From Solirubrobacterales bacterium (GTDB lineage: Bacteria > Actinomycetota > Thermoleophilia > Solirubrobacterales > 70-9): a DNA stretch of 64,000 nt. The stretch spans positions 2,566 through 66,565 of the forward strand of contig DASXAR010000061.1 in assembly GCA_036406595.1 (NCBI GenBank), read 5' to 3'. The notes beneath the pieces are model-generated. The model made no database searches. It was given only the letters and a program-made list of their open reading frames with translations, and was not told the DNA's origin. Below, piece after piece: positions 22,629-55,437 of this stretch; position 1 is the stretch's first letter, and each line of letters begins with the position of its first letter. Both the position numbers and the translations under genes were made by a program.

Positions 22629-24506
22629 ATGAACGATCAAACCGCTCAGACCGCGACGATCGAGACGCGGATACCCGCCCGCCTCGATCGACTTCCCTGG
22701 TCGAAGTTCCACTGGCTCGTCGTGATCGGCCTGGGGACGGTATGGATCCTCGACGGGCTCGAGGTGACGATCGTCGGCAGCATCGGCGATCGCCTCACCG
22801 AAAACGGCAGCGGGATCACGCTCGACCCCAGCCAGATCGGCACCGCGGCGGCCTTCTACGTCGCCGGGGCCTGTGTCGGCGCCCTCTTCTTCGGCCAGCT
22901 CACCGACCGCTTCGGGCGCAAGAAGCTCTTCCTGGTCACGCTGGGCGTCTACATCGCCGCGACCGTCGCCACCGCCTTCTCCTTCGCCGCCTGGTACTTC
23001 TACGCTGCCCGCTTCTTCACCGGATCGGGGATCGGTGGCGAGTACGCGGCGATCAACTCGGCGATCGACGAGCTGATCCCGGCCCGGGTCAGGGGCCGCG
23101 TCGACCTGATGATCAACGGCAGCTACTGGCTCGGTGCCGCGGGTGGGGCGCTGGCCGCGGTGGCCTTCCTCGACACCGCCCTGTTCGCCGCCGACGTCGG
23201 CTGGCGCCTCGCCTTCGGGCTCGGGGCACTGCTCGGCCTCGGCATCCTCTTCGTGCGCCGCAGCGTCCCGGAGAGCCCCCGCTGGCTCTTCATCCACGGC
23301 CGTGAGGAGGAGGCCGAGGGGATAGTCGGCGACATCGAGCGGGGCGTGGAGCGGGACACCGGCGAGTCCCTCTCGGAGCCCGACGAGAGCATCGAAGTCG
23401 TACAGCGCAGGCGCATCCCGTTCCGCGAGATCGCCAAGACCGCCTTCTCGAGATATCCCCGGCGGACCGTCCTCGGCCTGGCCCTTTTCGTCGGCCAGGC
23501 ATTCATGTACAACGCGGTCACCTTCGACCTCGGGACGCTGCTCGGGGAATTCTTCGAAGTAGCCTCCGGGACGATCCCGATCTACATCGCGATCTTCGCG
23601 ATCTCGAATTTCCTCGGCCCCTTCACGCTGGGCAGGCTCTTCGACACCGTGGGCCGCAAGCCGATGATCGCCGGCACCTATCTCGTCTCTGCGGCCCTCA
23701 CCGTGGTGCTCGGATTCCTACTGCTCGGCAACAGCCTCGGAACCTGGGGCTTCATGGCGTTCGTGCTGGCGATCTTCTTCGTCGCCTCCGCGGGGGCGAG
23801 CTCCGCCTATCTGACGGTCAGCGAGATCTTCCCGATGGAGACGCGGGCGCTCTCGATCGCATTCTTCTATGCGGTCGGCACGGCGGCGGGGGGTATCACC
23901 GGGCCGCTTCTCTTCGGCCATCTGATCGCCAGCGGCAGCCAGGATCAGGTTGCGATCGGCTTCTTCGTCGGCGCCGGGGTGATGGCGATCGGCGGCATCG
24001 CCGAGATCCTCTTCGGCGTCCGTGCGGAGCAGGAGAGTCTGGAGGACGTAGCCAAACCGCTCACCGCGGAGGAGGCGGAGCGGGCAGAGGAGCCGGAAAG
24101 GGCCGAGGAGTCCGAGGAGGCGGTCGAGCTGCGCCGGCGCCGGCAGGGATGGCGCGAGGCGGCGGAGGCGCACCGCCGGCGGGAACGCACCGGGCTCAGG
24201 CGCTACCGCCCGGGGCCCGGCCGGTTCGCGTCTTCGCCTGGAATGCTTCTGACGACGCCCGACGAGCCCGGCCTGGATCACGAGATCGAGATCATCGAAC
24301 GGGCACTGGGGGAGCACGGCTCCGCCAGCCGCCGGGAGCTTTACCGCCGGGTCGGCGGCCGCTACTGGGGGCCCGGGCGCTTCGGGGCGGCGCTGCGCGA
24401 GGCCGTCGCGGAAGGGCGCGCTCGACGGCTCCGCCGCGATCAGTACGCCCCGGTCGGCGAGGGGCCGGGAGGTTCGGCCGACTCCGGTGACGGGGCCGCG
24501 GCCTAG
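22629..24506 (+). CDS. MFS transporter (metabolite/sugar porter type) with about 165-aa cytoplasmic C-terminal extension
   Basis: 12-TM core (GQLTDRFGRKKLF motif), followed by an acidic linker and an Arg-rich, winged-helix-like tail. Confidence 0.8.
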   Translation: MNDQTAQTATIETRIPARLDRLPWSKFHWLVVIGLGTVWILDGLEVTIVGSIGDRLTENGSGITLDPSQIGTAAAFYVAGACVGALFFGQLTDRFGRKKLFLVTLGVYIAATVATAFSFAAWYFYAARFFTGSGIGGEYAAINSAIDELIPARVRGRVDLMINGSYWLGAAGGALAAVAFLDTALFAADVGWRLAFGLGALLGLGILFVRRSVPESPRWLFIHGREEEAEGIVGDIERGVERDTGESLSEPDESIEVVQRRRIPFREIAKTAFSRYPRRTVLGLALFVGQAFMYNAVTFDLGTLLGEFFEVASGTIPIYIAIFAISNFLGPFTLGRLFDTVGRKPMIAGTYLVSAALTVVLGFLLLGNSLGTWGFMAFVLAIFFVASAGASSAYLTVSEIFPMETRALSIAFFYAVGTAAGGITGPLLFGHLIASGSQDQVAIGFFVGAGVMAIGGIAEILFGVRAEQESLEDVAKPLTAEEAERAEEPERAEESEEAVELRRRRQGWREAAEAHRRRERTGLRRYRPGPGRFASSPGMLLTTPDEPGLDHEIEIIERALGEHGSASRRELYRRVGGRYWGPGRFGAALREAVAEGRARRLRRDQYAPVGEGPGGSADSGDGAAA

Positions 24507-26332
24507 GGTTCGGCGACGGCCTTCCCGGCCAGCGCAACCGCAGCCTCTACATGCGACAGATGGGTGAGCGCGAGGGGGAAGTTGCCGAGCATGCGACCCT
24601 GATCCGGGTCGTACTCCTCCGAGAAGAGCCCAAGCGGGCTGGCGATCGCCTCGGCCGCGTCGAACGCGGCCCGCGCCTCCTCCTCCCTCCCCTGCCGGGC
24701 GAGGCAGGTCGCGAGCCAGAATGAGCAGGCGAGGAATGCGCCCTCCTCGGGCATCCCATCGTCAGCGTCGTAACGCCGCAGCAGCCCACCCAGCTCGAGT
24801 CCGTCGCGGATCGCCTCGGTGGTCCGCAGCATCCGCTCGTCGTCCCACTCCAGGAAGCCGACCACCGGCAGCCGCAACAGGGCGGCGTCCAGGTCCGTGT
24901 GGTCGAAGTCCATGACGAAGATTTCCCTCTCCTCGTCGTAGCCGCGCTTCTCGATCGCGGCTCGCACCTCCTCGCGAGCCCGGCGCCAGCGATCCGGTAT
25001 CTCCTTGCCGCAATCCTCGCCAAGCCGGATCCCCCTGTCCATCGCCGCCCAGGTGAGCGCCTTCGAGTGCACGAAGTGGCGCGGCTCGCCCCGCCACTCC
25101 CAGATGCCCCGGTCGCGCTCCTGCCAGTGCTCGATCGCGGCGTCGACCAGCTCGGCGACGAACAGCCAGTAATCGTGATCCGGTGAGTTGCCGCGGCGAT
25201 GCCAGCGCCAGCTCTGGTCGACGAGATGCCCGAAGGCATCGAGCTGAAGCTGGGTGGAGGCCTGGTTGCCGACGCGGATCGGCTTCGCCCCTCGCCAGCC
25301 CTCGAGCCCGTCGAGCTCCTGCTCGCCGAGGCGACGCTCCCCCCCGACGCCGAAGAGGATCTGCAGGTCCTTCGCGTTGCCCGCCGCGCTGCGCTCGATG
25401 AAACTGCGGAAGTCGTCGGCGTCGCGATCGCAGCCCAGCTCGGCGAGCGAGCGCACGGTGAGTGCCGAATCCCTGACCCAGCTGTAGCGGTAATCCCAGT
25501 TGCGCTCGCCGCTCAGGTTGCGCGCCTCGGGCAGCGAGGTGGTGGCGGCGGCTGCGATCGCGCCGGTGGGCTCATAGGAGAGGGCCTTCAGGGTGAGAGC
25601 CGAACGGCTGACGGCGGGAAATCCGTCCGTCACCTCCGCGTCGATGCAGGAGGCCCACTCCTGCCACCACTCGATCGCCGCATCGAGGTCCTCCTCGCAG
25701 GCGGCTCGATCGAGAGGCTCGAAGCCATCGAGCGAATCGAGCTCGACCGGCCGCCGGTACCCGATCTCGAGCACCGCCCGGTCGCCCTCCTTCAGCGCGG
25801 CCGAGCAGACGAGCCGGTGCCGCCCCTCGAACTCGAAATCCAGCCCGCTGCGGATCAGCAGGCCGTCGTCGCCGCCGATCGCGGCCCAGACACCGTCGCC
25901 CCCGCGCAGCCAGGGGGCCACGGACCCGTAGTCGAAGCGCGGGGCGACGCAGACGCGGGGCTCGATGCTCCCGCCGACGCAGTCGAGGATGCGCACGATC
26001 CTCGGCCCTTTCCCGCCGGGGCGGGTGAAGAAGTCGATCAGCCGCGCCTCCCCGTCGGACGACCGCAGGCGCGTCTCCAAGACCATGCTCCTGTCGAGAT
26101 ACCGCTGCTCCCCATCCTCCCCGAGCGCGATCGAGCAGTGACCACCGCACTCGCGATCGAGCAGCCGAGCGAACAGCGCACCGGAGTCGAAGCGGGGCAT
26201 ACAGCACCAGTCGATCGAGCCCCCCCGCGAGACGAGGGCGGCGCTGCGACGATCCCCAATCAGCCCATAGTCCTCCAGCGGGGAGTACGATTGTCCTGAA
26301 TCGCCGGGCTGATCACCCGCAGCGGATCCCAC
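24503..26332 (-). CDS. glycoside hydrolase family 15 (glucoamylase/trehalase-like)
   Basis: YSPLEDYGLIGDRRSAALVSRGGSIDWCCMPRFDS N-terminus and (alpha/alpha)6 catalytic-region motifs. GTG start lies 9 nt after GGGTAG. Confidence 0.85.
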   Translation of the reverse strand: MGSAAGDQPGDSGQSYSPLEDYGLIGDRRSAALVSRGGSIDWCCMPRFDSGALFARLLDRECGGHCSIALGEDGEQRYLDRSMVLETRLRSSDGEARLIDFFTRPGGKGPRIVRILDCVGGSIEPRVCVAPRFDYGSVAPWLRGGDGVWAAIGGDDGLLIRSGLDFEFEGRHRLVCSAALKEGDRAVLEIGYRRPVELDSLDGFEPLDRAACEEDLDAAIEWWQEWASCIDAEVTDGFPAVSRSALTLKALSYEPTGAIAAAATTSLPEARNLSGERNWDYRYSWVRDSALTVRSLAELGCDRDADDFRSFIERSAAGNAKDLQILFGVGGERRLGEQELDGLEGWRGAKPIRVGNQASTQLQLDAFGHLVDQSWRWHRRGNSPDHDYWLFVAELVDAAIEHWQERDRGIWEWRGEPRHFVHSKALTWAAMDRGIRLGEDCGKEIPDRWRRAREEVRAAIEKRGYDEEREIFVMDFDHTDLDAALLRLPVVGFLEWDDERMLRTTEAIRDGLELGGLLRRYDADDGMPEEGAFLACSFWLATCLARQGREEEARAAFDAAEAIASPLGLFSEEYDPDQGRMLGNFPLALTHLSHVEAAVALAGKAVAEP

Positions 26333-26341
26333 GGCCCGGCT

Positions 26342-26369
26342 CTACCCCGGCCCCGGCCGGCGGCAAACC
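26342..26369 (-). promoter_or_regulatory. SigB/F-type promoter GGTTT-N17-GGGTAG for GH15 (leaderless)
   Basis: Plus strand shows CTACCC 26342-26347 and AAACC 26365-26369. GTG 26332 is 9 nt after GGGTAG. Confidence 0.6.
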
Positions 26370-26370
26370 A

Positions 26371-26397
26371 GTTTTGCTCCCGGTCCGCGGTGGGTAG
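26371..26397 (+). promoter_or_regulatory. SigB/F-type promoter GTTT-N17-GGGTAG upstream of the sigma gene (autoregulatory candidate)
   Basis: GTTT 26371-26374 and GGGTAG 26392-26397. About 105-nt leader to ATG 26503. Confidence 0.6.
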
Positions 26398-26457
26398 CCA
26401 GACACTCAGCAAAGCGAGACTTACAAAATGCCGTACGGCCCGTTTAAGGCTCGAGGG

Positions 26458-26484
26458 CGGTACCGGATGTGGACCTCGGTACCG
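26458..26484 (+). promoter_or_regulatory. leader hairpin formed by two self-complementary CGGTACCG octamers in the sigma-gene 5' UTR
   Basis: Octamers at 26458-26465 and 26477-26484, separated by an 11-nt loop. Confidence 0.35.
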
Positions 26485-26502
26485 TCGCGGCGTTGAATCC
26501 AG

Positions 26503-27339
26503 ATGGCAGACGAGCGACTCAGCGAGGAGATGGATAGCTTGCCGGGCCCCGGTGCGGGAACGCAACTGGCGAGCGAACGGGAGCTCTGGCGTCGCTTCTC
26601 CCAGAGCCGTGACCCTGAGGTTCGCGAGGAGCTGGTGCGCCGCAACATGCCGTTCGCGAAGCGCCTCGCGCTCCGCTACCGGGGCGCCAGCGAGTCGTTC
26701 GACGACCTCCTGCAGGTCGCCAACCTGGGCTTGCTCAACGCGATCGATCGCTTCGATCCCGATCGCGGAATCCCCTTCACCGCCTTCGCCTCGCCGACCG
26801 TCCTGGGTGAGCTCAAACGGCACTTCCGCGACCGTGTCTGGACCGTTCGCGTGCCACGCGGCCTGCACGATCGCATGGCGGAAGTCGACAAAGCGATCAC
26901 CGAGCTGACCAAACAGCTACAGCGCTCCCCCTCGATCCCGGAGATCGCCGAGCGGCTCGAGCTCGAGCAGACCGACGTGCTCGAGGTGATGGAGGCAAAC
27001 CACAACCGGCGGCCCCTCTCGCTGGACCGTCCGGCGGGGCCCGAGGACCCCGACGAGTCGATGCCGGTCGAATGGGTCGGCCACGAGGACCAGGCCTACG
27101 AGCTGGTGGAGGGCAGGATCGCCCTCGACGCAGCCCTGCCTTTCCTCGACGAGCGGGAGCGGCTGGTGCTCAGGCTTCGCTTCGCGGAGGACATGACCCA
27201 GTCCCAGATCGCAGAGCGAATCGGCCACTCGCAGATGCACGTCTCGCGCATCCTGCGCCGAGCGCTGGCACGCATCCGCGACCGGATCGAGGAGGAACGC
27301 GGCGAGAGCGAGCGCCCCGCCGAGACCCCGGAGGACTAG
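26503..27339 (+). CDS. RNA polymerase sigma factor, SigB/SigF/SigG (group 3) type
   Basis: Regions 2-4 are recognisable (DDLLQVANLGLLNAIDRFDP, RVPRGLHD, SQIAERIGHSQMHVSRIL). Confidence 0.9.
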   Translation: MADERLSEEMDSLPGPGAGTQLASERELWRRFSQSRDPEVREELVRRNMPFAKRLALRYRGASESFDDLLQVANLGLLNAIDRFDPDRGIPFTAFASPTVLGELKRHFRDRVWTVRVPRGLHDRMAEVDKAITELTKQLQRSPSIPEIAERLELEQTDVLEVMEANHNRRPLSLDRPAGPEDPDESMPVEWVGHEDQAYELVEGRIALDAALPFLDERERLVLRLRFAEDMTQSQIAERIGHSQMHVSRILRRALARIRDRIEEERGESERPAETPED

Positions 27340-28181
27340 CGCGCGGCGACGAAGTGGACGACGAGATAATCGCCGTCGTCTGACCCCTCGATCGTCAGAT
27401 CATCCGCAAGAGCCTCGAGCGATCCGCCGACGGCCGGAACTTCGAGCTCCTCGACGATCTTCCCGGCGGCTCCCGGCTCCATCGGTCCGATCCGCAGGCC
27501 GATTCCATCCCCGGCCTCGTCGAGACCGAGCCGCACGCGCCCGTCCTCGAAGCGTGAGGGCACCGCGGCGGCAATTGCGTCGGTGACGAGGACCGCGTCG
27601 GAAACGCGATCGACCGAGAGCTCTCGACGCGCCGCGAGGGCGCCGACCACCCTGGCGAGGACCGGTCCGAGCAGCTCGGCTCGGTCGGTGACGAGCTCGG
27701 TCACGTCCTCTCCTTTCGGCACCTCCGTCGTCGGCTCGCCGTCGAGGCTTCCGGCTGCGCCGCCCGTGAGCGGCAGGCGCATCGAGACCTCCGTCCCCTG
27801 GTTGAGCCCGCCCGATATCGCGAAGCTGGTGGAGAGCGCCGCGATCAGCGAGAGACCGAGGCGGAGGCTGTCGCGTTCGGGGTCGGCCTGTGGCCGGATC
27901 CCCACCCCCTCGTCGCGTACCGTCACGGTGAGGCCGCTGTCGTCGGGCATCGCCTCCACGCTGAGCGGCCCGGGCCGGCCCTCGTAAGCATGGACGGCGA
28001 CGTTCATGCAGGCCTCGGTCACCACCGTCTTCAGATCCGCAAGGCCCGCTTCGTCCATGCCGATCTCCTCCGCGAGACCGGCCAGCGCGTGCCGAATCAC
28101 GGCGACGTTCTCCGCCCTGGCGGGAAGAATCATCTGGAGGCCGCTCGGCCTCTCGGTGGGGGTCGACGTGTATGGCATCAA
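27336..28181 (-). CDS. RsbW/UsfX-like anti-sigma serine kinase (HATPase_c) with a second, degenerate repeat of the fold
   Basis: N-box EACMNVAVHAY, G1 VRDEGVGI, G2 RLGLSLI. The C-terminal 140 aa repeat this pattern without the Asn or the DxGxG motif. Confidence 0.8.
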   Translation of the reverse strand: MMPYTSTPTERPSGLQMILPARAENVAVIRHALAGLAEEIGMDEAGLADLKTVVTEACMNVAVHAYEGRPGPLSVEAMPDDSGLTVTVRDEGVGIRPQADPERDSLRLGLSLIAALSTSFAISGGLNQGTEVSMRLPLTGGAAGSLDGEPTTEVPKGEDVTELVTDRAELLGPVLARVVGALAARRELSVDRVSDAVLVTDAIAAAVPSRFEDGRVRLGLDEAGDGIGLRIGPMEPGAAGKIVEELEVPAVGGSLEALADDLTIEGSDDGDYLVVHFVAAR

Positions 28182-28254
28182 CAGCGCTCTCGCCAGGGGA
28201 CGATGTTCCCGGCGCCCCCGAGCATAGGCCAGCGCTCGGCGGTCGATTCATTCG

Positions 28255-28281
28255 CTACCCCTGCTGGCCGGGCGTGAAACC
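28255..28281 (-). promoter_or_regulatory. SigB/F-type promoter GGTTT-N16-GGGTAG for the RsbW-like kinase
   Basis: Plus strand shows CTACCC 28255-28260 and AAACC 28277-28281. Confidence 0.6.
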
Positions 28282-28297
28282 ACGCTCTCCGAAGCGC

Positions 28298-28303
28298 TAG
28301 GAT
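28298..28303 (+). promoter_or_regulatory. housekeeping-type -10 TAGGAT, 7 nt before the STAS GTG (leaderless)
   Basis: Matches the TANNNT pattern. No SD. Confidence 0.4.
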
Positions 28304-28310
28304 CGCCCGC

Positions 28311-28682
28311 GTGAGTCCGTCGCCGTTCGACGCGCGATTCGAGGAGCTGGAGGGTGGGATCCGCACCTTCACGGTGTGCGGAGAGCTCGACATGAATACG
28401 GCCCCGGAGCTTGCGCAGCTGCTCGAGGAGAATGTCTCCGGGCCGGAGGGCGCCGTGATGCTGGACCTCACGCAGTGCGAGTTCATCGACTCGACCGGGA
28501 TCGCCCTGATCGTGCGCACCTGGCAGCAGGTCGACCGCGACGCGGGCGGCGAGGGCAGCGGCCGCATGGTGATCTGCTGCAGCAACCATCAGGTCCTGCG
28601 GCTGCTGAAGATCACCGGGGTCGACTCCTCGATCTCGCTCTACGACGGCCGCGAGGCCGCGCTCGCAGCGCTGCGCGACTGA
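28311..28682 (+). CDS. STAS-domain anti-sigma-factor antagonist (RsbV/SpoIIAA-like)
   Basis: CEFIDSTGIALIV carries the conserved phosphorylatable Ser. GTG start lies 7 nt after a TAGGAT -10. Confidence 0.85.
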   Translation: MSPSPFDARFEELEGGIRTFTVCGELDMNTAPELAQLLEENVSGPEGAVMLDLTQCEFIDSTGIALIVRTWQQVDRDAGGEGSGRMVICCSNHQVLRLLKITGVDSSISLYDGREAALAALRD

Positions 28683-28690
28683 GCCGGGCC

Positions 28691-28715
28691 GTTTCGGCAC
28701 CGAAACTCGGGGTAG
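28691..28715 (+). promoter_or_regulatory. GTTT-N15-GGGTAG upstream of ctaC; overlaps a GTTTCGG-CA-CCGAAAC palindrome (function ambiguous)
   Basis: GTTT 28691-28694 and GGGTAG 28710-28715. The palindrome at 28691-28706 lies just after the STAS stop. Confidence 0.4.
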
Positions 28716-28742: not shown

Positions 28743-29696
28743 GTGGAGGCGGGGGCGAGGTATGTGTCCCCCCTAGACCCACACAGCCCCGCGGCACGCG
28801 ATATCGCCACGCTGTGGTGGTGGATGCTGGCGGCGGCGGCGATCGTCTTCGCAGGGGCGATCGCGCTGCTCTGGCTGGGCTGGCGGCGCCGGGGCGAGCC
28901 CGGGCTGCCGTGGATCGGCGAGAGCGAGCGCTTCAACACCGGGCTGGTGGTCGCGTTCGGGATGGTGATCCCCGCGGTCGTCCTCTCGGCGCTGTTCGTC
29001 GGCGCCAACCTGGTCGTGATGCGGGACACCGAACCGCCCAGCCGCAGCGCGACGGCGATGACCATCGTCGCGATCGGCCATCAGTGGTGGTGGGAGTTCC
29101 GGTATCCCGAAAGCGGAGTCGTCACCGCCAACGAACTCCACATCCCCGCCTCCACCTCCGTGAACCTGGAGGCCCGCTCGGCCGACGTCATCCACTCCTT
29201 TTGGGTGCCGGAGCTGAACCGCAAGATCGACATGGTCCCCGGCCAGCGCAACCGGATCGAGCTCTACGCCGAACATGCGGGGACGTACCGCGGGCAGTGC
29301 GCGGAGTTCTGCGGCCTCCAGCACGCCAACATGGCATTCAACGTCGTCGCCGAACCGCAGAGCGGCTTCCAGAGCTGGCTCCGGCAGGAGCAGGCCCCGG
29401 CGGAGCCGCCCCAGGGAGCCGAGGCGGTGGCCGGGATGAGGGCGTTCATGGAAGGCGCCTGCGCCAGCTGCCACACGATCAGCGGCACCGAGGCGCGGGG
29501 CACCGTGGGGCCCGACCTGACCCATGTGGCGAGTCGCGCCACGCTCGCCGCGCTGACCGGGCCCAACCGGCACGGATTCCTCGATCAGTGGATCAGTGAC
29601 CCGCAGAGCATCAAGCCCGGCAGCAAGATGCCCGGGCTCGAGTTGACGGAAGCCCAGTTCAGATCGCTGGTCGCCTACCTCTCGGGGCTGCGCTGA
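28743..29696 (+). CDS. ctaC: cytochrome c oxidase subunit II with fused C-terminal cytochrome c domain (caa3 type)
   Basis: CuA site CAEFCGLQHANM and heme c site CASCHTI. Two N-terminal TM helices. Confidence 0.9.
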   Translation: MEAGARYVSPLDPHSPAARDIATLWWWMLAAAAIVFAGAIALLWLGWRRRGEPGLPWIGESERFNTGLVVAFGMVIPAVVLSALFVGANLVVMRDTEPPSRSATAMTIVAIGHQWWWEFRYPESGVVTANELHIPASTSVNLEARSADVIHSFWVPELNRKIDMVPGQRNRIELYAEHAGTYRGQCAEFCGLQHANMAFNVVAEPQSGFQSWLRQEQAPAEPPQGAEAVAGMRAFMEGACASCHTISGTEARGTVGPDLTHVASRATLAALTGPNRHGFLDQWISDPQSIKPGSKMPGLELTEAQFRSLVAYLSGLR

Positions 29697-44885: not shown

Positions 44886-45269
44886 ATGGATGCAAGCAAC
44901 CGCGACGTGACGAATGGAACGTTGAGCGTCCGGGTGATCGCGAATGACGCGACGCCGACGCTGGCCCTCTCTGGCGAGCTGGACCTGGCCAATGCCGAGA
45001 CCTTTGCCGCAGAGCTGGAGCGGGTGGAGAGCGATGCCCCCACCATGATCACGGTGGACATGCAGGAGCTGGAGTTCATCGATTCGACAGGGATCGCCGT
45101 GCTCGTCGCGGCACATCGGCGGCTCAACGACGGCGGGCTGCGGATCCGCCTCGTGCGCAGCCGGGCGAGCGCCGTGCGGCGGGTTCTCGACGTGACCGGC
45201 CTCGACGCGGAGCTGCCCTTCGTCGACCCGGGCGAGATTTCCGGCACCGAACCCGGTCTGGCGCAGTAG
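44886..45269 (+). CDS. STAS-domain anti-sigma-factor antagonist, second copy
   Basis: LEFIDSTGIAVLV carries the conserved Ser. 127 aa. Confidence 0.85.
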   Translation: MDASNRDVTNGTLSVRVIANDATPTLALSGELDLANAETFAAELERVESDAPTMITVDMQELEFIDSTGIAVLVAAHRRLNDGGLRIRLVRSRASAVRRVLDVTGLDAELPFVDPGEISGTEPGLAQ

Positions 45270-46718: not shown

Positions 46719-47120
46719 GGCGATGGCGCCGAAGCGGGCGACGGCCTCCTCGGGATCGGGATAGACCTCACCGCGAATGAAGAGCCCGTCACGAACCTCC
46801 CAGATCCAGGCGACGGGGAGGTCGCGGATCCCGAGCTCGCGGCTGCGCGCGTAGACCCGGCCGCGGACGAGCACCGTCGATCCTCTCCACTCCTGTGTGC
46901 CCGGCACGATCTGAAGCTCTTCCCAGATCTCCTCGATGTCGTCCATGTAGTCGCGAAGGCCGGCCGGGCCGACGTATGGGCCGACGCGGCCCACCGCCTC
47001 CGCCGTGACGATCGGATAGAAAGCCATCTCGTCGTCGCAGACCGCTCGGATGCATTCCTCGTCGCGCCGATTGAAGCAATCGAAGAGGCGCTCTACCAGC
47101 TCGGGCCCGGACCCCTCCAT
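46713..47120 (-). CDS. SnoaL/NTF2-like fold protein
   Basis: 135 aa. LVERLFDCFNRRDEE...WIWEVRDGLF, typical of the SnoaL-like/ketosteroid-isomerase-like fold. Confidence 0.65.
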   Translation of the reverse strand: MEGSGPELVERLFDCFNRRDEECIRAVCDDEMAFYPIVTAEAVGRVGPYVGPAGLRDYMDDIEEIWEELQIVPGTQEWRGSTVLVRGRVYARSRELGIRDLPVAWIWEVRDGLFIRGEVYPDPEEAVARFGAIAV

Positions 47121-48526
47121 TACCGTTTTCCCAGGACTTCGTACGGAGGCGCCTCCGCCGACGTCGCCGCCCCGGGGGCGGCGGGCTCCGCCTCATCCCG
47201 CGCGCGCGCCATCGCCAGGATCGCGATGTCGTCGTCGATCTCTCCCTCGGTAAAGCCATGCAGGGCAGCCTCGAGCCGCTCGAGCGCGAGTGCCGGATTG
47301 GTGGCGCCGCGCAGCACCTCGCCGACGCGCTCCTCGCCGAAACGGCCCTCCGCCCCCTGCGCCTCGGAGACCCCGTCGGTGGCGATCACGAGCTGCTGTC
47401 CAAATCGGACCTCGCTGCGGACCAGGGTCCAGCGCGCGTCGGGAAACGCGCCGAGCACAGGATCAGCCTCCGCCGCCTCGGTCACCCGCTCGCCGTCGAC
47501 GAGGAGGGGCGGAGGGTGGCCGGCAACCGCGAGCCGCACGGGCTCGAGCGGGTCTTCGCTGAGCACGACCGCGACCAGGCTGCAGAGGGACTCGTCGCCC
47601 CGCGCCAGCAGGGCGCGATTGAGGGTTGCGAGGGCGACAAGCGGGTCATTGCTCAGCAGCGCCGCGGTTCGCAGCGTGTAGCGGGCGACCGCGGTGATAG
47701 AGGCGGCCTGGGCGCCGCGGCCAGTGACGTCGCCGATCGCAAGCATCCAGCCGCCGGGGACCCGGTAGACGTCGTAGAAGTCGCCGCCGACCTCGTTCTG
47801 CGCTCCGGCCGGCCGGTACATCGCCGCCACCGACCAGCCCGGGATGTTGGGGAGGGGCGGCGGGAGAAGGCCGCGCTGCAGGGTCTCGGCGATCTCGGTG
47901 CGCTCGCGCTCGGCGCGCTCGAGGTCGTCGAAGAGGCCGGCGTTGTCGAGGGCGAGCGCGACGCGGCCGGAGAGGATCCAGGCGAAGTTGGCGTCGTCGC
48001 GGTGGTATCGGCGCTTCGACCAGGCGACTCCCACCGTGAGCGTTCCGGTCACTTTGCCGCGCGCGTTGAGGGCGACGGTGATCGCGGAGCGCGGCGCGAT
48101 CCTGCGCATCAGCTCCAGGTCCTCCGGGTCGTCGGCCAGCTCCCTGAGCACCGAGTCGGGCATCCGCTCGAAGAAGCGGGGCTTGAGGGCTGCGCTGCCG
48201 TTGCCGGCGAGCATGTGCTCGGGTGTGGACGGCCGCCTTTCGGCGAGTTGCCGCCCGATCCCCTCCTCCGCCCCGGGCGCGACCCGCACCGCGGCCCGGG
48301 TGACCTCGCCCTCGCTGATCAGGTCGATCATGCAGAAGTCGGCAAGGTCCGGGACTAGGATGTCGCAGATCGACTCGAAGGTGTGCTCCAGGGATCCGCC
48401 CGAGTCGGAGACCACCGCGACATCCGCGAGCATGCGGAAGCGCCGTCGCGCCTTGCGCTCACGCACGAACAGCACGGCCATCGCAATCGCGATCGCCCCG
48501 ATCAACATCGCCACCACTGCGGTCAC
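47120..48526 (-). CDS. membrane-anchored GAF + PP2C (SpoIIE/RsbU-type) serine phosphatase
   Basis: N-terminal TM helix, a GAF-like middle region and the PP2C motif GGDFYDV...IGDVTGRGAQAA. Confidence 0.85.
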   Translation of the reverse strand: MTAVVAMLIGAIAIAMAVLFVRERKARRRFRMLADVAVVSDSGGSLEHTFESICDILVPDLADFCMIDLISEGEVTRAAVRVAPGAEEGIGRQLAERRPSTPEHMLAGNGSAALKPRFFERMPDSVLRELADDPEDLELMRRIAPRSAITVALNARGKVTGTLTVGVAWSKRRYHRDDANFAWILSGRVALALDNAGLFDDLERAERERTEIAETLQRGLLPPPLPNIPGWSVAAMYRPAGAQNEVGGDFYDVYRVPGGWMLAIGDVTGRGAQAASITAVARYTLRTAALLSNDPLVALATLNRALLARGDESLCSLVAVVLSEDPLEPVRLAVAGHPPPLLVDGERVTEAAEADPVLGAFPDARWTLVRSEVRFGQQLVIATDGVSEAQGAEGRFGEERVGEVLRGATNPALALERLEAALHGFTEGEIDDDIAILAMARARDEAEPAAPGAATSAEAPPYEVLGKR

Positions 48527-55363: not shown

Positions 55364-55437
55364 CGGGGCGTGGCGCAGCCTGGTAGCGCGCACCGTTCGG
55401 GTCGGTGAGGTCCCCGGTTCAAATCCGGGCGCCCCGA
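55364..55437 (+). tRNA. tRNA-Pro (anticodon CGG)
   Basis: 74-nt cloverleaf. Acceptor CGGGGCG/CGCCCCG, D arm GCGC-AGCCTGGTA-GCGC, anticodon arm CACCG-TTCGGGT-CGGTG, T arm CCCGG-TTCAAAT-CCGGG. CCA is not encoded. Confidence 0.9.

Follow-up and report, generated by a model that had tools for sequence, protein, structure and literature searches.

Separate predicted promoters for the three core genes of a SigB/SigF-type partner-switching module in an uncultured Solirubrobacterales bacterium

The usual account of partner-switching stress responses derives their dynamics from the co-transcription of antagonist, anti-sigma factor and sigma factor, which keeps the three in fixed proportion. How would such a response be wired where the three genes do not share a transcript? 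The question is raised by positions 26342–28715 of a 64,000-nucleotide (nt) stretch of DNA (the window; positions 2,566–66,565 of the forward strand of contig DASXAR010000061.1, assembly GCA_036406595.1), which carry genes for a sigma factor, an RsbW-like kinase/anti-sigma factor and a STAS antagonist. The host is an uncultured Solirubrobacterales metagenome-assembled genome (MAG), 92% complete, of which ~2.2 Mb were searched; the G+C content of the window is ~70%. Our reading, to which we assign a probability of roughly 0.68, is that the locus encodes a single partner-switching module of the SigB/SigF type whose three core genes are placed on separate promoters. The observations behind it are the gene identities and the sequence motifs, together with the conservation and enrichment of these motifs.

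A preliminary description of the locus had placed three open reading frames (ORFs) here, with the sigma and kinase genes convergent and their stop codons sharing a CTAG, and the sequence bears this out. The sigma gene (26503–27339, +) encodes a 278-residue protein of the group-3 SigB/SigF/SigG family, which scores 260.5 bits on TIGR02980 (cut-off 234.35 bits) and contains Pfam sigma-70 regions 2, 3 and 4, all above cut-off. Facing it, the kinase gene (27336–28181, −; TTG at 28181, probable start ATG at 28178) encodes 280 residues, of which 19–135 match HATPase_c_2 (PF13581) with an E-value of 8.5e-20. Its N-terminal half (residues 1–140; 27759–28178, −) is an RsbW/SpoIIAB-type Ser kinase/anti-sigma domain by Pfam and Foldseek matches, with intact N-box and DxGxG motifs: Glu55, Asn59, His63, Asp89, Gly91, Gly93 and Gly108 are invariant in a 27-sequence alignment. 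The best named relatives of the protein are SpoIIAB and RsbW, with scores that fall below the respective equivalog cut-offs. The third gene (28311–28682, +; GTG start) encodes a 123-residue STAS anti-sigma-factor antagonist, STAS1, identified by Pfam STAS and by 67.5 bits on TIGR00377 (cut-off 53.45 bits). The phosphorylatable Ser61, in the motif EFIDSTG, is kept in 52 of 54 STAS1 sequences, and a Ser is also present in STAS2, a second STAS protein encoded at 44886–45269. All three ORFs show gene-like G+C content at third codon positions (GC3).

The genome search returned one SigBFG-type sigma factor, with no second SigB/SigF/SigG sigma above cut-off besides 26503–27339, one strong RsbW-like protein, three PP2C phosphatases and two STAS proteins, both encoded within the window. 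On these counts, the module is the organism's only one of its kind.

Conservation was assessed in 80 loci from different genomes, each with a relative of the kinase (60–79% identity), and in 19 further loci of relatives found by genome search (a twentieth was the window's own and was left out). The closest relatives of the kinase gene all come from uncultured Solirubrobacterales MAGs (Thermoleophilia, Actinomycetota) with genomes of 2–3 Mb. When gene order was compared, the sigma and kinase genes proved convergent in 80/80 loci, as well as in all 19 loci of the additional set, and the STAS gene was adjacent to and divergent from the kinase gene in about 53 of the 80. The textbook layout, with antagonist, anti-sigma factor and sigma factor on one strand in one operon, is not found here, where sigma is on the plus strand, the kinase on the minus strand and STAS divergent on the plus strand. 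The earlier proposal that these genes form three separately promoted units is supported by conservation in the relatives.

The promoter motif at issue is GTTT-N15–17-GGGTA. It occurs nine times in the window against 0.08 ± 0.27 in shuffled sequences, a more than 100-fold enrichment; genome-wide there are 17 matches in 2.2 Mb, nine of them on this 70-kb contig, with 1–12 matches for scrambled control patterns. The motif equals the promoter form of mycobacterial SigF, GTTT-N17-GGGTAA or GGWWT-N16–17-GGGTAY (PMC7693655). Enrichment, conservation and the match to the SigF form together predict that these sites are recognized by the sigma factor of the window. The sigma and kinase genes were both said to carry their own GTTT-N16/17-GGGTAG, and we find the matches at 26371–26397 (+; GTTT at 26371–26374, N17, GGGTAG at 26392–26397) and 28255–28280 (−; GTTT at 28280–28277, N16, GGGTAG at 28260–28255), respectively.

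The STAS gene has an element of another kind, a TAGGAT −10 box (28298–28303, +) 7 nt ahead of its GTG, which is conserved in the relatives. The box near STAS reads TAGGAT in 40 loci and TAGCAT in 13, and it lies 6–8 nt before a conserved GTG in 52 of these 53. This spacing agrees with the housekeeping-type box and the leaderless look noted previously, and fits the expression of STAS from a leaderless mRNA. A −35 region shared by design between the STAS and kinase promoters was also considered and rejected, the two being 17 nt apart in the window and 6–69 nt apart in relatives.

A separate observation concerns the STAS1 protein itself, in which Cys56, just ahead of the phospho-Ser loop (52/54), and Cys89 (53/54) are conserved in the clade; STAS2 is without both. 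The contrast recalls the redox-controlled RsfA and phospho-controlled RsfB of mycobacteria, with the difference that STAS1 keeps its Ser.

All 80 related loci have an exact copy of the sigma-type promoter upstream of the kinase gene, 60 of them with a 16-nt spacer, 12 with one of 15 nt and eight with one of 17 nt. Between it and the start codon lies a second conserved element, TATGCT (28222–28227, −), which follows the consensus TANNNT in 78/80 loci, as TATGCT in 70, and stands 22–27 nt past GGGTA and 32–46 nt ahead of the start codon in the relatives. As a control, the 260-nt regions upstream of sigma were searched with TA[GT][GCT][AC]T, a pattern broad enough for the STAS and the kinase boxes alike, and only one of 80 contained it. 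TATGCT is probably a second, housekeeping-type −10 box that gives basal expression of the kinase, in which case the gene would probably not be governed by sigma alone. The independent negative loop that had been proposed for the anti-sigma factor is thus upheld as far as the sigma-dependent input is concerned, and is qualified by this probable second promoter.

It is possible, if doubtful in our view, that the TATGCT block is instead a cis-regulatory part of the leader, for instance a site bound by a protein or an element of the RNA, and that the kinase is made only when sigma is active. The block does sit within the predicted leader, its distance from the −10 element varying no more than from 22 to 27 nt, a GGGG...CCCC hairpin trails it in most relatives, and the CG that follows the hexamer is conserved too, for which a plain −10 box would have no need. 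Set against these points, the block is an exact fit to TANNNT and is similar to TAG[G/C]ATCG, the box ahead of the leaderless STAS gene; basal anti-sigma expression is needed to hold sigma ahead of induction; rsbW-sigF of M. smegmatis is served by two promoters, one SigF-independent and one SigF-dependent (PMC7693655); and the covariation in the hairpin is weak. The hairpin lies within 28179–28221 (−) in the window, and compensatory changes affect three of its four pairs. With a hairpin of only 4 bp and a covariation term of −0.39, the idea that the leader of the kinase gene forms a conserved RNA structure was rejected.

The sigma gene must own a promoter in the window because its upstream neighbour is divergent, and the match at 26371–26397 would serve as an autoregulatory promoter of the SigB/SigF type. 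In relatives the picture is more varied. An exact sigma-type promoter precedes sigma in 34/80 loci, and in 0/27 of the loci without an adjacent STAS gene. At least 24 other loci have an extended −10 box, TGnTAGnnT, 11–15 nt ahead of a common leader block, and the same block trails the sigma-type promoter in the window and in 12 other loci. Since either promoter can stand before the same leader, the promoter type has therefore been swapped in evolution as the kinase promoter stayed constant. The positive sigma loop of the preliminary description would accordingly hold for this species, in which the promoter is present, and not for the group, in which it is exact in 34 of 80 loci and replaced in at least 24; positive autoregulation of sigma is not conserved. 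The leader block itself, found by strict pattern match at 26430–26460 (+) in the ~100-nt sigma leader (GCCGTACGG...GGCTCGAGGGCGG), follows the pattern GCYGYACGG-N-GGCTCSAGGGCGG in at least 41 of 81 sequences, behind either promoter type, and may be an RNA hairpin or an operator.

Comparison across the class separates what is constant from what varies. In other genera of the same family, sigma and kinase are convergent too, and STAS is often upstream of the kinase on the same strand. Other families have sigma followed by kinase on one strand, kinase followed by sigma, or a STAS-kinase pair with no sigma nearby. In many of these loci the sigma-type motif lies directly ahead of the kinase gene or the STAS-kinase pair, and it precedes the kinase even where sigma is just upstream on the same strand. 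Thus, what stays constant across the class is that the anti-sigma gene has a sigma-dependent promoter to itself; convergence is a rearrangement at the level of the family, and the three-unit split one at the level of the genus. The constancy of the kinase promoter, while the sigma promoter type varies, suggests that the circuit cannot do without negative feedback via the anti-sigma factor and can dispense with positive autoregulation.

Is the kinase an ordinary anti-sigma factor? RsbW, SpoIIAB and UsfX are single-domain homodimers of ~140–160 residues; the window's protein has 280 residues and a second domain. The AlphaFold (AF2) model of the whole protein has a predicted local distance difference test (pLDDT) value of 74 and a predicted template modelling (pTM) score of 0.70. 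In Foldseek, the N-terminal half matches SpoIIAB, RsbW and UsfX with template modelling (TM) scores of 0.76–0.91, normalized to target length. The C-terminal half (residues 157–280; 27339–27710, −) lacks the N-box Asn and the DxGxG motif in the alignment; folded alone, it reaches a pLDDT of 84, its top 19 fold matches in the PDB are all SpoIIAB, UsfX or RsbW chains, and its secondary-structure elements come in the same order as those of the N-terminal half. Searches with the C-half sequence against Pfam and the PDB gave no match, and the half was rejected as a sequence-proven duplicate of the N-terminal half, as BLASTP returned nothing significant and hhalign a probability of 2% with an E-value of 0.023. 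The C-terminal half is thus a degenerate RsbW-fold domain by predicted fold, not by sequence.

This tandem of active and degenerate domains is almost confined to the Thermoleophilia: the C-domain is found in 75 of 201 sampled genomes of that class at E ≤ 0.001, and in 12 of 301 sampled Actinomycetota genomes at E ≤ 1e-6, of which only two lie outside the families of the class search. In several other Thermoleophilia families the two halves are encoded by adjacent genes in different reading frames. Their fusion in some families and adjacency in others therefore argues that both parts act together, as a heteromeric anti-sigma factor.

One could suppose that such a protein does not act as anti-sigma factor on the sigma encoded next to it, and that it serves only as a STAS kinase, or acts on another target, with the adjacency a historical relic. 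One family of the order does have a STAS-kinase pair with no sigma gene within 5 kb, the protein is twice the length of RsbW, and its binding to sigma is a prediction. We nevertheless regard this explanation as very improbable, given that the adjacency of sigma and kinase persists in at least four families through changes of orientation, that the kinase gene has a sigma-type promoter in every one of the 80 loci, that no more than one SigBFG sigma and one strong RsbW-like protein are encoded in the genome, and that the best structural matches of both halves are anti-sigma factors, including the SpoIIAB-sigmaF and UsfX-SigF complexes. Binding of the kinase to sigma and phosphorylation of STAS by the kinase are predicted, on our preferred reading of a single module, from conserved gene linkage and the conserved STAS Ser.

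The convergent junction raises the further question of whether the layout is itself regulatory. The sigma stop (TAG, 27337–27339) and the kinase stop (TAG on the complement, 27336–27338) share the palindrome CTAG at 27336–27339. The two ORFs overlap in 71/80 related loci; the shared segment is 26 nt long in 32 of these, 4 nt in 19 and 62 nt in seven. The 26-nt overlap is a conserved dual-coding segment that reads as the kinase tail ...IRFAAAP on one strand and the sigma tail ...IREQRQSE on the other. Genome-wide, 73/214 convergent pairs overlap, 39 by exactly 4 nt and 33 of those through CTAG, these counts resting on crude GC3-based gene calls; within the window the figure is 6–8 of 13 pairs. 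The CTAG overlap was rejected as a special device of the sigma/kinase pair because overlaps are this common. Overlapping stops reflect general tight packing, and shared TAG-TAG stops are commonplace in this streamlined, high-GC genome. At the junction itself there are no terminator-like sites, the fold z-scores are 0.06 and −0.30, and only weak inverted repeats were found. With neither terminator nor unusual structure, each transcript must therefore run into the opposite gene. The antisense coupling put forward in the preliminary description is possible and is not specially indicated.

Taken further, this idea makes the overlapping layout a regulatory device: colliding RNA polymerases and antisense pairing at the 3′ ends would tie the expression of sigma and anti-sigma together and let each limit the other. 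We consider it unlikely. The invariant convergence, its occurrence in several other genera of the same family, the frequent ORF overlap with its dual-coding form, and the entry of each transcript into the facing gene would all suit such a device; the overlaps are not specific to this pair, sister families function with sigma and kinase on one strand, and sigma is not sigma-dependent in at least 24 relatives, hence symmetric coupling is not conserved. A more elaborate proposal joins the junction to the kinase architecture: an asymmetric covalent anti-sigma 'dimer' binding sigma 1:1, combined with facing sigma-dependent promoters and no terminator, would form a new circuit in which interference or antisense sets the sigma:anti-sigma ratio and the response limits itself. 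This we hold to be quite unlikely.

Having weighed these alternatives, we return to a single module with separately promoted genes, to which we ascribe promoter functions and, from homology, protein interactions, phosphorylation and dynamics as follows. The STAS antagonist would be constitutively produced, its leaderless mRNA being transcribed from a housekeeping-type −10 box. The kinase would be made at a basal level from the probable TATGCT promoter, and the sigma-dependent promoter just upstream would raise this level, giving negative feedback; the sigma gene, driven in this species by its own sigma-dependent promoter, would provide positive feedback. At rest, the kinase would bind sigma and phosphorylate Ser61 of STAS. 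Under stress, PP2C phosphatases, with the GAF-PP2C protein encoded at 47120–48526 as one candidate, would dephosphorylate STAS, and unphosphorylated STAS would draw the kinase off sigma. Free sigma would then transcribe a mostly local regulon that includes its own gene and that of the kinase. As the kinase would be induced and STAS1 would not, the kinase:antagonist ratio would climb, which should end the response.

Several points weigh against this reading. First, there are two STAS proteins in the window, and either is a candidate for the main partner of the kinase. Second, the kinase is an atypical 280-residue tandem, and so may combine with sigma and STAS in other proportions than RsbW does. 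Third, TATGCT could be an RNA or operator element in a sigma-dependent leader, with the short, weakly covarying hairpin behind it. Fourth, the window's sigma gene has no recognizable housekeeping promoter, which leaves the basal supply of sigma unexplained. The crude gene calls behind the genome-wide overlap statistics are a further weakness.

How far does this wiring depart from known ones? In B. subtilis, a single sigma-B-dependent promoter of rsbV-rsbW-sigB-rsbX co-induces antagonist, anti-sigma factor and sigma factor in fixed proportion. The present module shares with that system a STAS antagonist, a Ser kinase/anti-sigma factor, a group-3 sigma factor, a putative PP2C input and a putatively autoregulated GTTT...GGGTA-type promoter, and the N-domain of its kinase matches RsbW (6M36/6M37) with TM scores of 0.82–0.91, normalized to target length. 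The module departs from the sigma-B system in leaving the antagonist out of the regulon and in encoding sigma and anti-sigma on opposite strands, each behind its own promoter, and no stressosome genes are seen beside it.

SpoIIAB acts as a dimer that binds one sigma. The SpoIIAA-SpoIIAB-sigmaF system (PDB 1L0O, 1TH8, 1TID) is the best structural match for both kinase halves. Whereas spoIIAA-AB-AC is one operon and SpoIIAB is a 146-residue homodimer, two RsbW-fold domains are fused here; unlike in SpoIIAB, only the first keeps the ATP-binding motifs, and sister families carry two adjacent genes. The tandem lends itself to probing, in a natural setting, the asymmetric complex of two anti-sigma subunits with one sigma (2:1) that is known for SpoIIAB.

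The mycobacterial SigF system (usfX/rsbW1-sigF, RsfA, RsfB and RsbW3; PMC7693655, PMC10950880) is of the same sigma family and has the same promoter form, GTTT-N16/17-GGGTA. It further shares with the window an RsbW-type anti-sigma factor, two STAS antagonists, the encoding of some components apart from sigma, and an apparent link to aa3 oxidase and respiration. In M. smegmatis the anti-sigma gene has both a SigF-dependent and a SigF-independent promoter (PMC7693655), as we propose here for the kinase gene. RsbW3, an RsbW paralog of the SigF regulon, is proposed to heterodimerize with RsbW1 (PMC7693655, PMC10950880), which parallels the fused degenerate domain of our kinase. The differences are equally clear: usfX and sigF are co-transcribed, whereas anti-sigma and sigma converge, overlap and have separate promoters in the window; the window's antagonist gene is a divergent neighbour with a leaderless and presumably constitutive promoter; and the kinase joins an active and a degenerate RsbW-fold domain covalently in tandem. 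The departure from co-transcribed textbook loci that had been pointed out is therefore real, in that co-transcription is absent here, and less singular than suggested, partner-switching genes being already known to be partly dispersed in mycobacteria (PMC7693655).

In the literature searched, on convergent sigma/anti-sigma genes or on stress sigma factors of Solirubrobacterales, the present arrangement is not described, and neither are a leaderless constitutive antagonist, a dual kinase promoter, promoter exchange at sigma or a tandem active/degenerate RsbW. The parts and the mechanism are known ones; the known mechanism is not overturned, and the catalogue of its wirings is extended. What the locus offers is a natural counter-example to fixed-proportion co-transcription, kept by no fewer than 80 species-level genomes of uncultured Actinomycetota that are abundant in soil, with an antagonist outside the regulon, an anti-sigma gene always under its own sigma-dependent promoter, and a sigma promoter whose type varies between species.

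Two further sigma-type promoters flank the module. One (26343–26368, −; GTTT-N17-GGGTA) faces a divergent GH15/trehalase-like gene (24503–26332; GH15 by Pfam) and stands back to back with the sigma promoter at 26371–26397 (+). The other (28691–28715, +; GTTT-N15-GGGTAG) begins 9 nt past the STAS stop and is directed at the gene for cytochrome oxidase subunit II (28743–29696; COX2 by Pfam), in a run of caa3-type cytochrome oxidase and bc1 genes. As nine of the 17 sites in the genome are on this one contig, the presumed regulon is largely a local island around the sigma gene; besides GH15 and the oxidase operon it would include a PoxB-like operon, a DUF72 gene, an acyl-CoA synthetase-like gene and others. 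In M. smegmatis, the SigF regulon is induced on loss of the aa3 oxidase or inhibition of respiration (PMC7693655, PMC10950880); in the window, the oxidase operon appears to be a target of sigma. The sole Rfam match in the window at gathering threshold is a tRNA gene at 55364–55437 (+).

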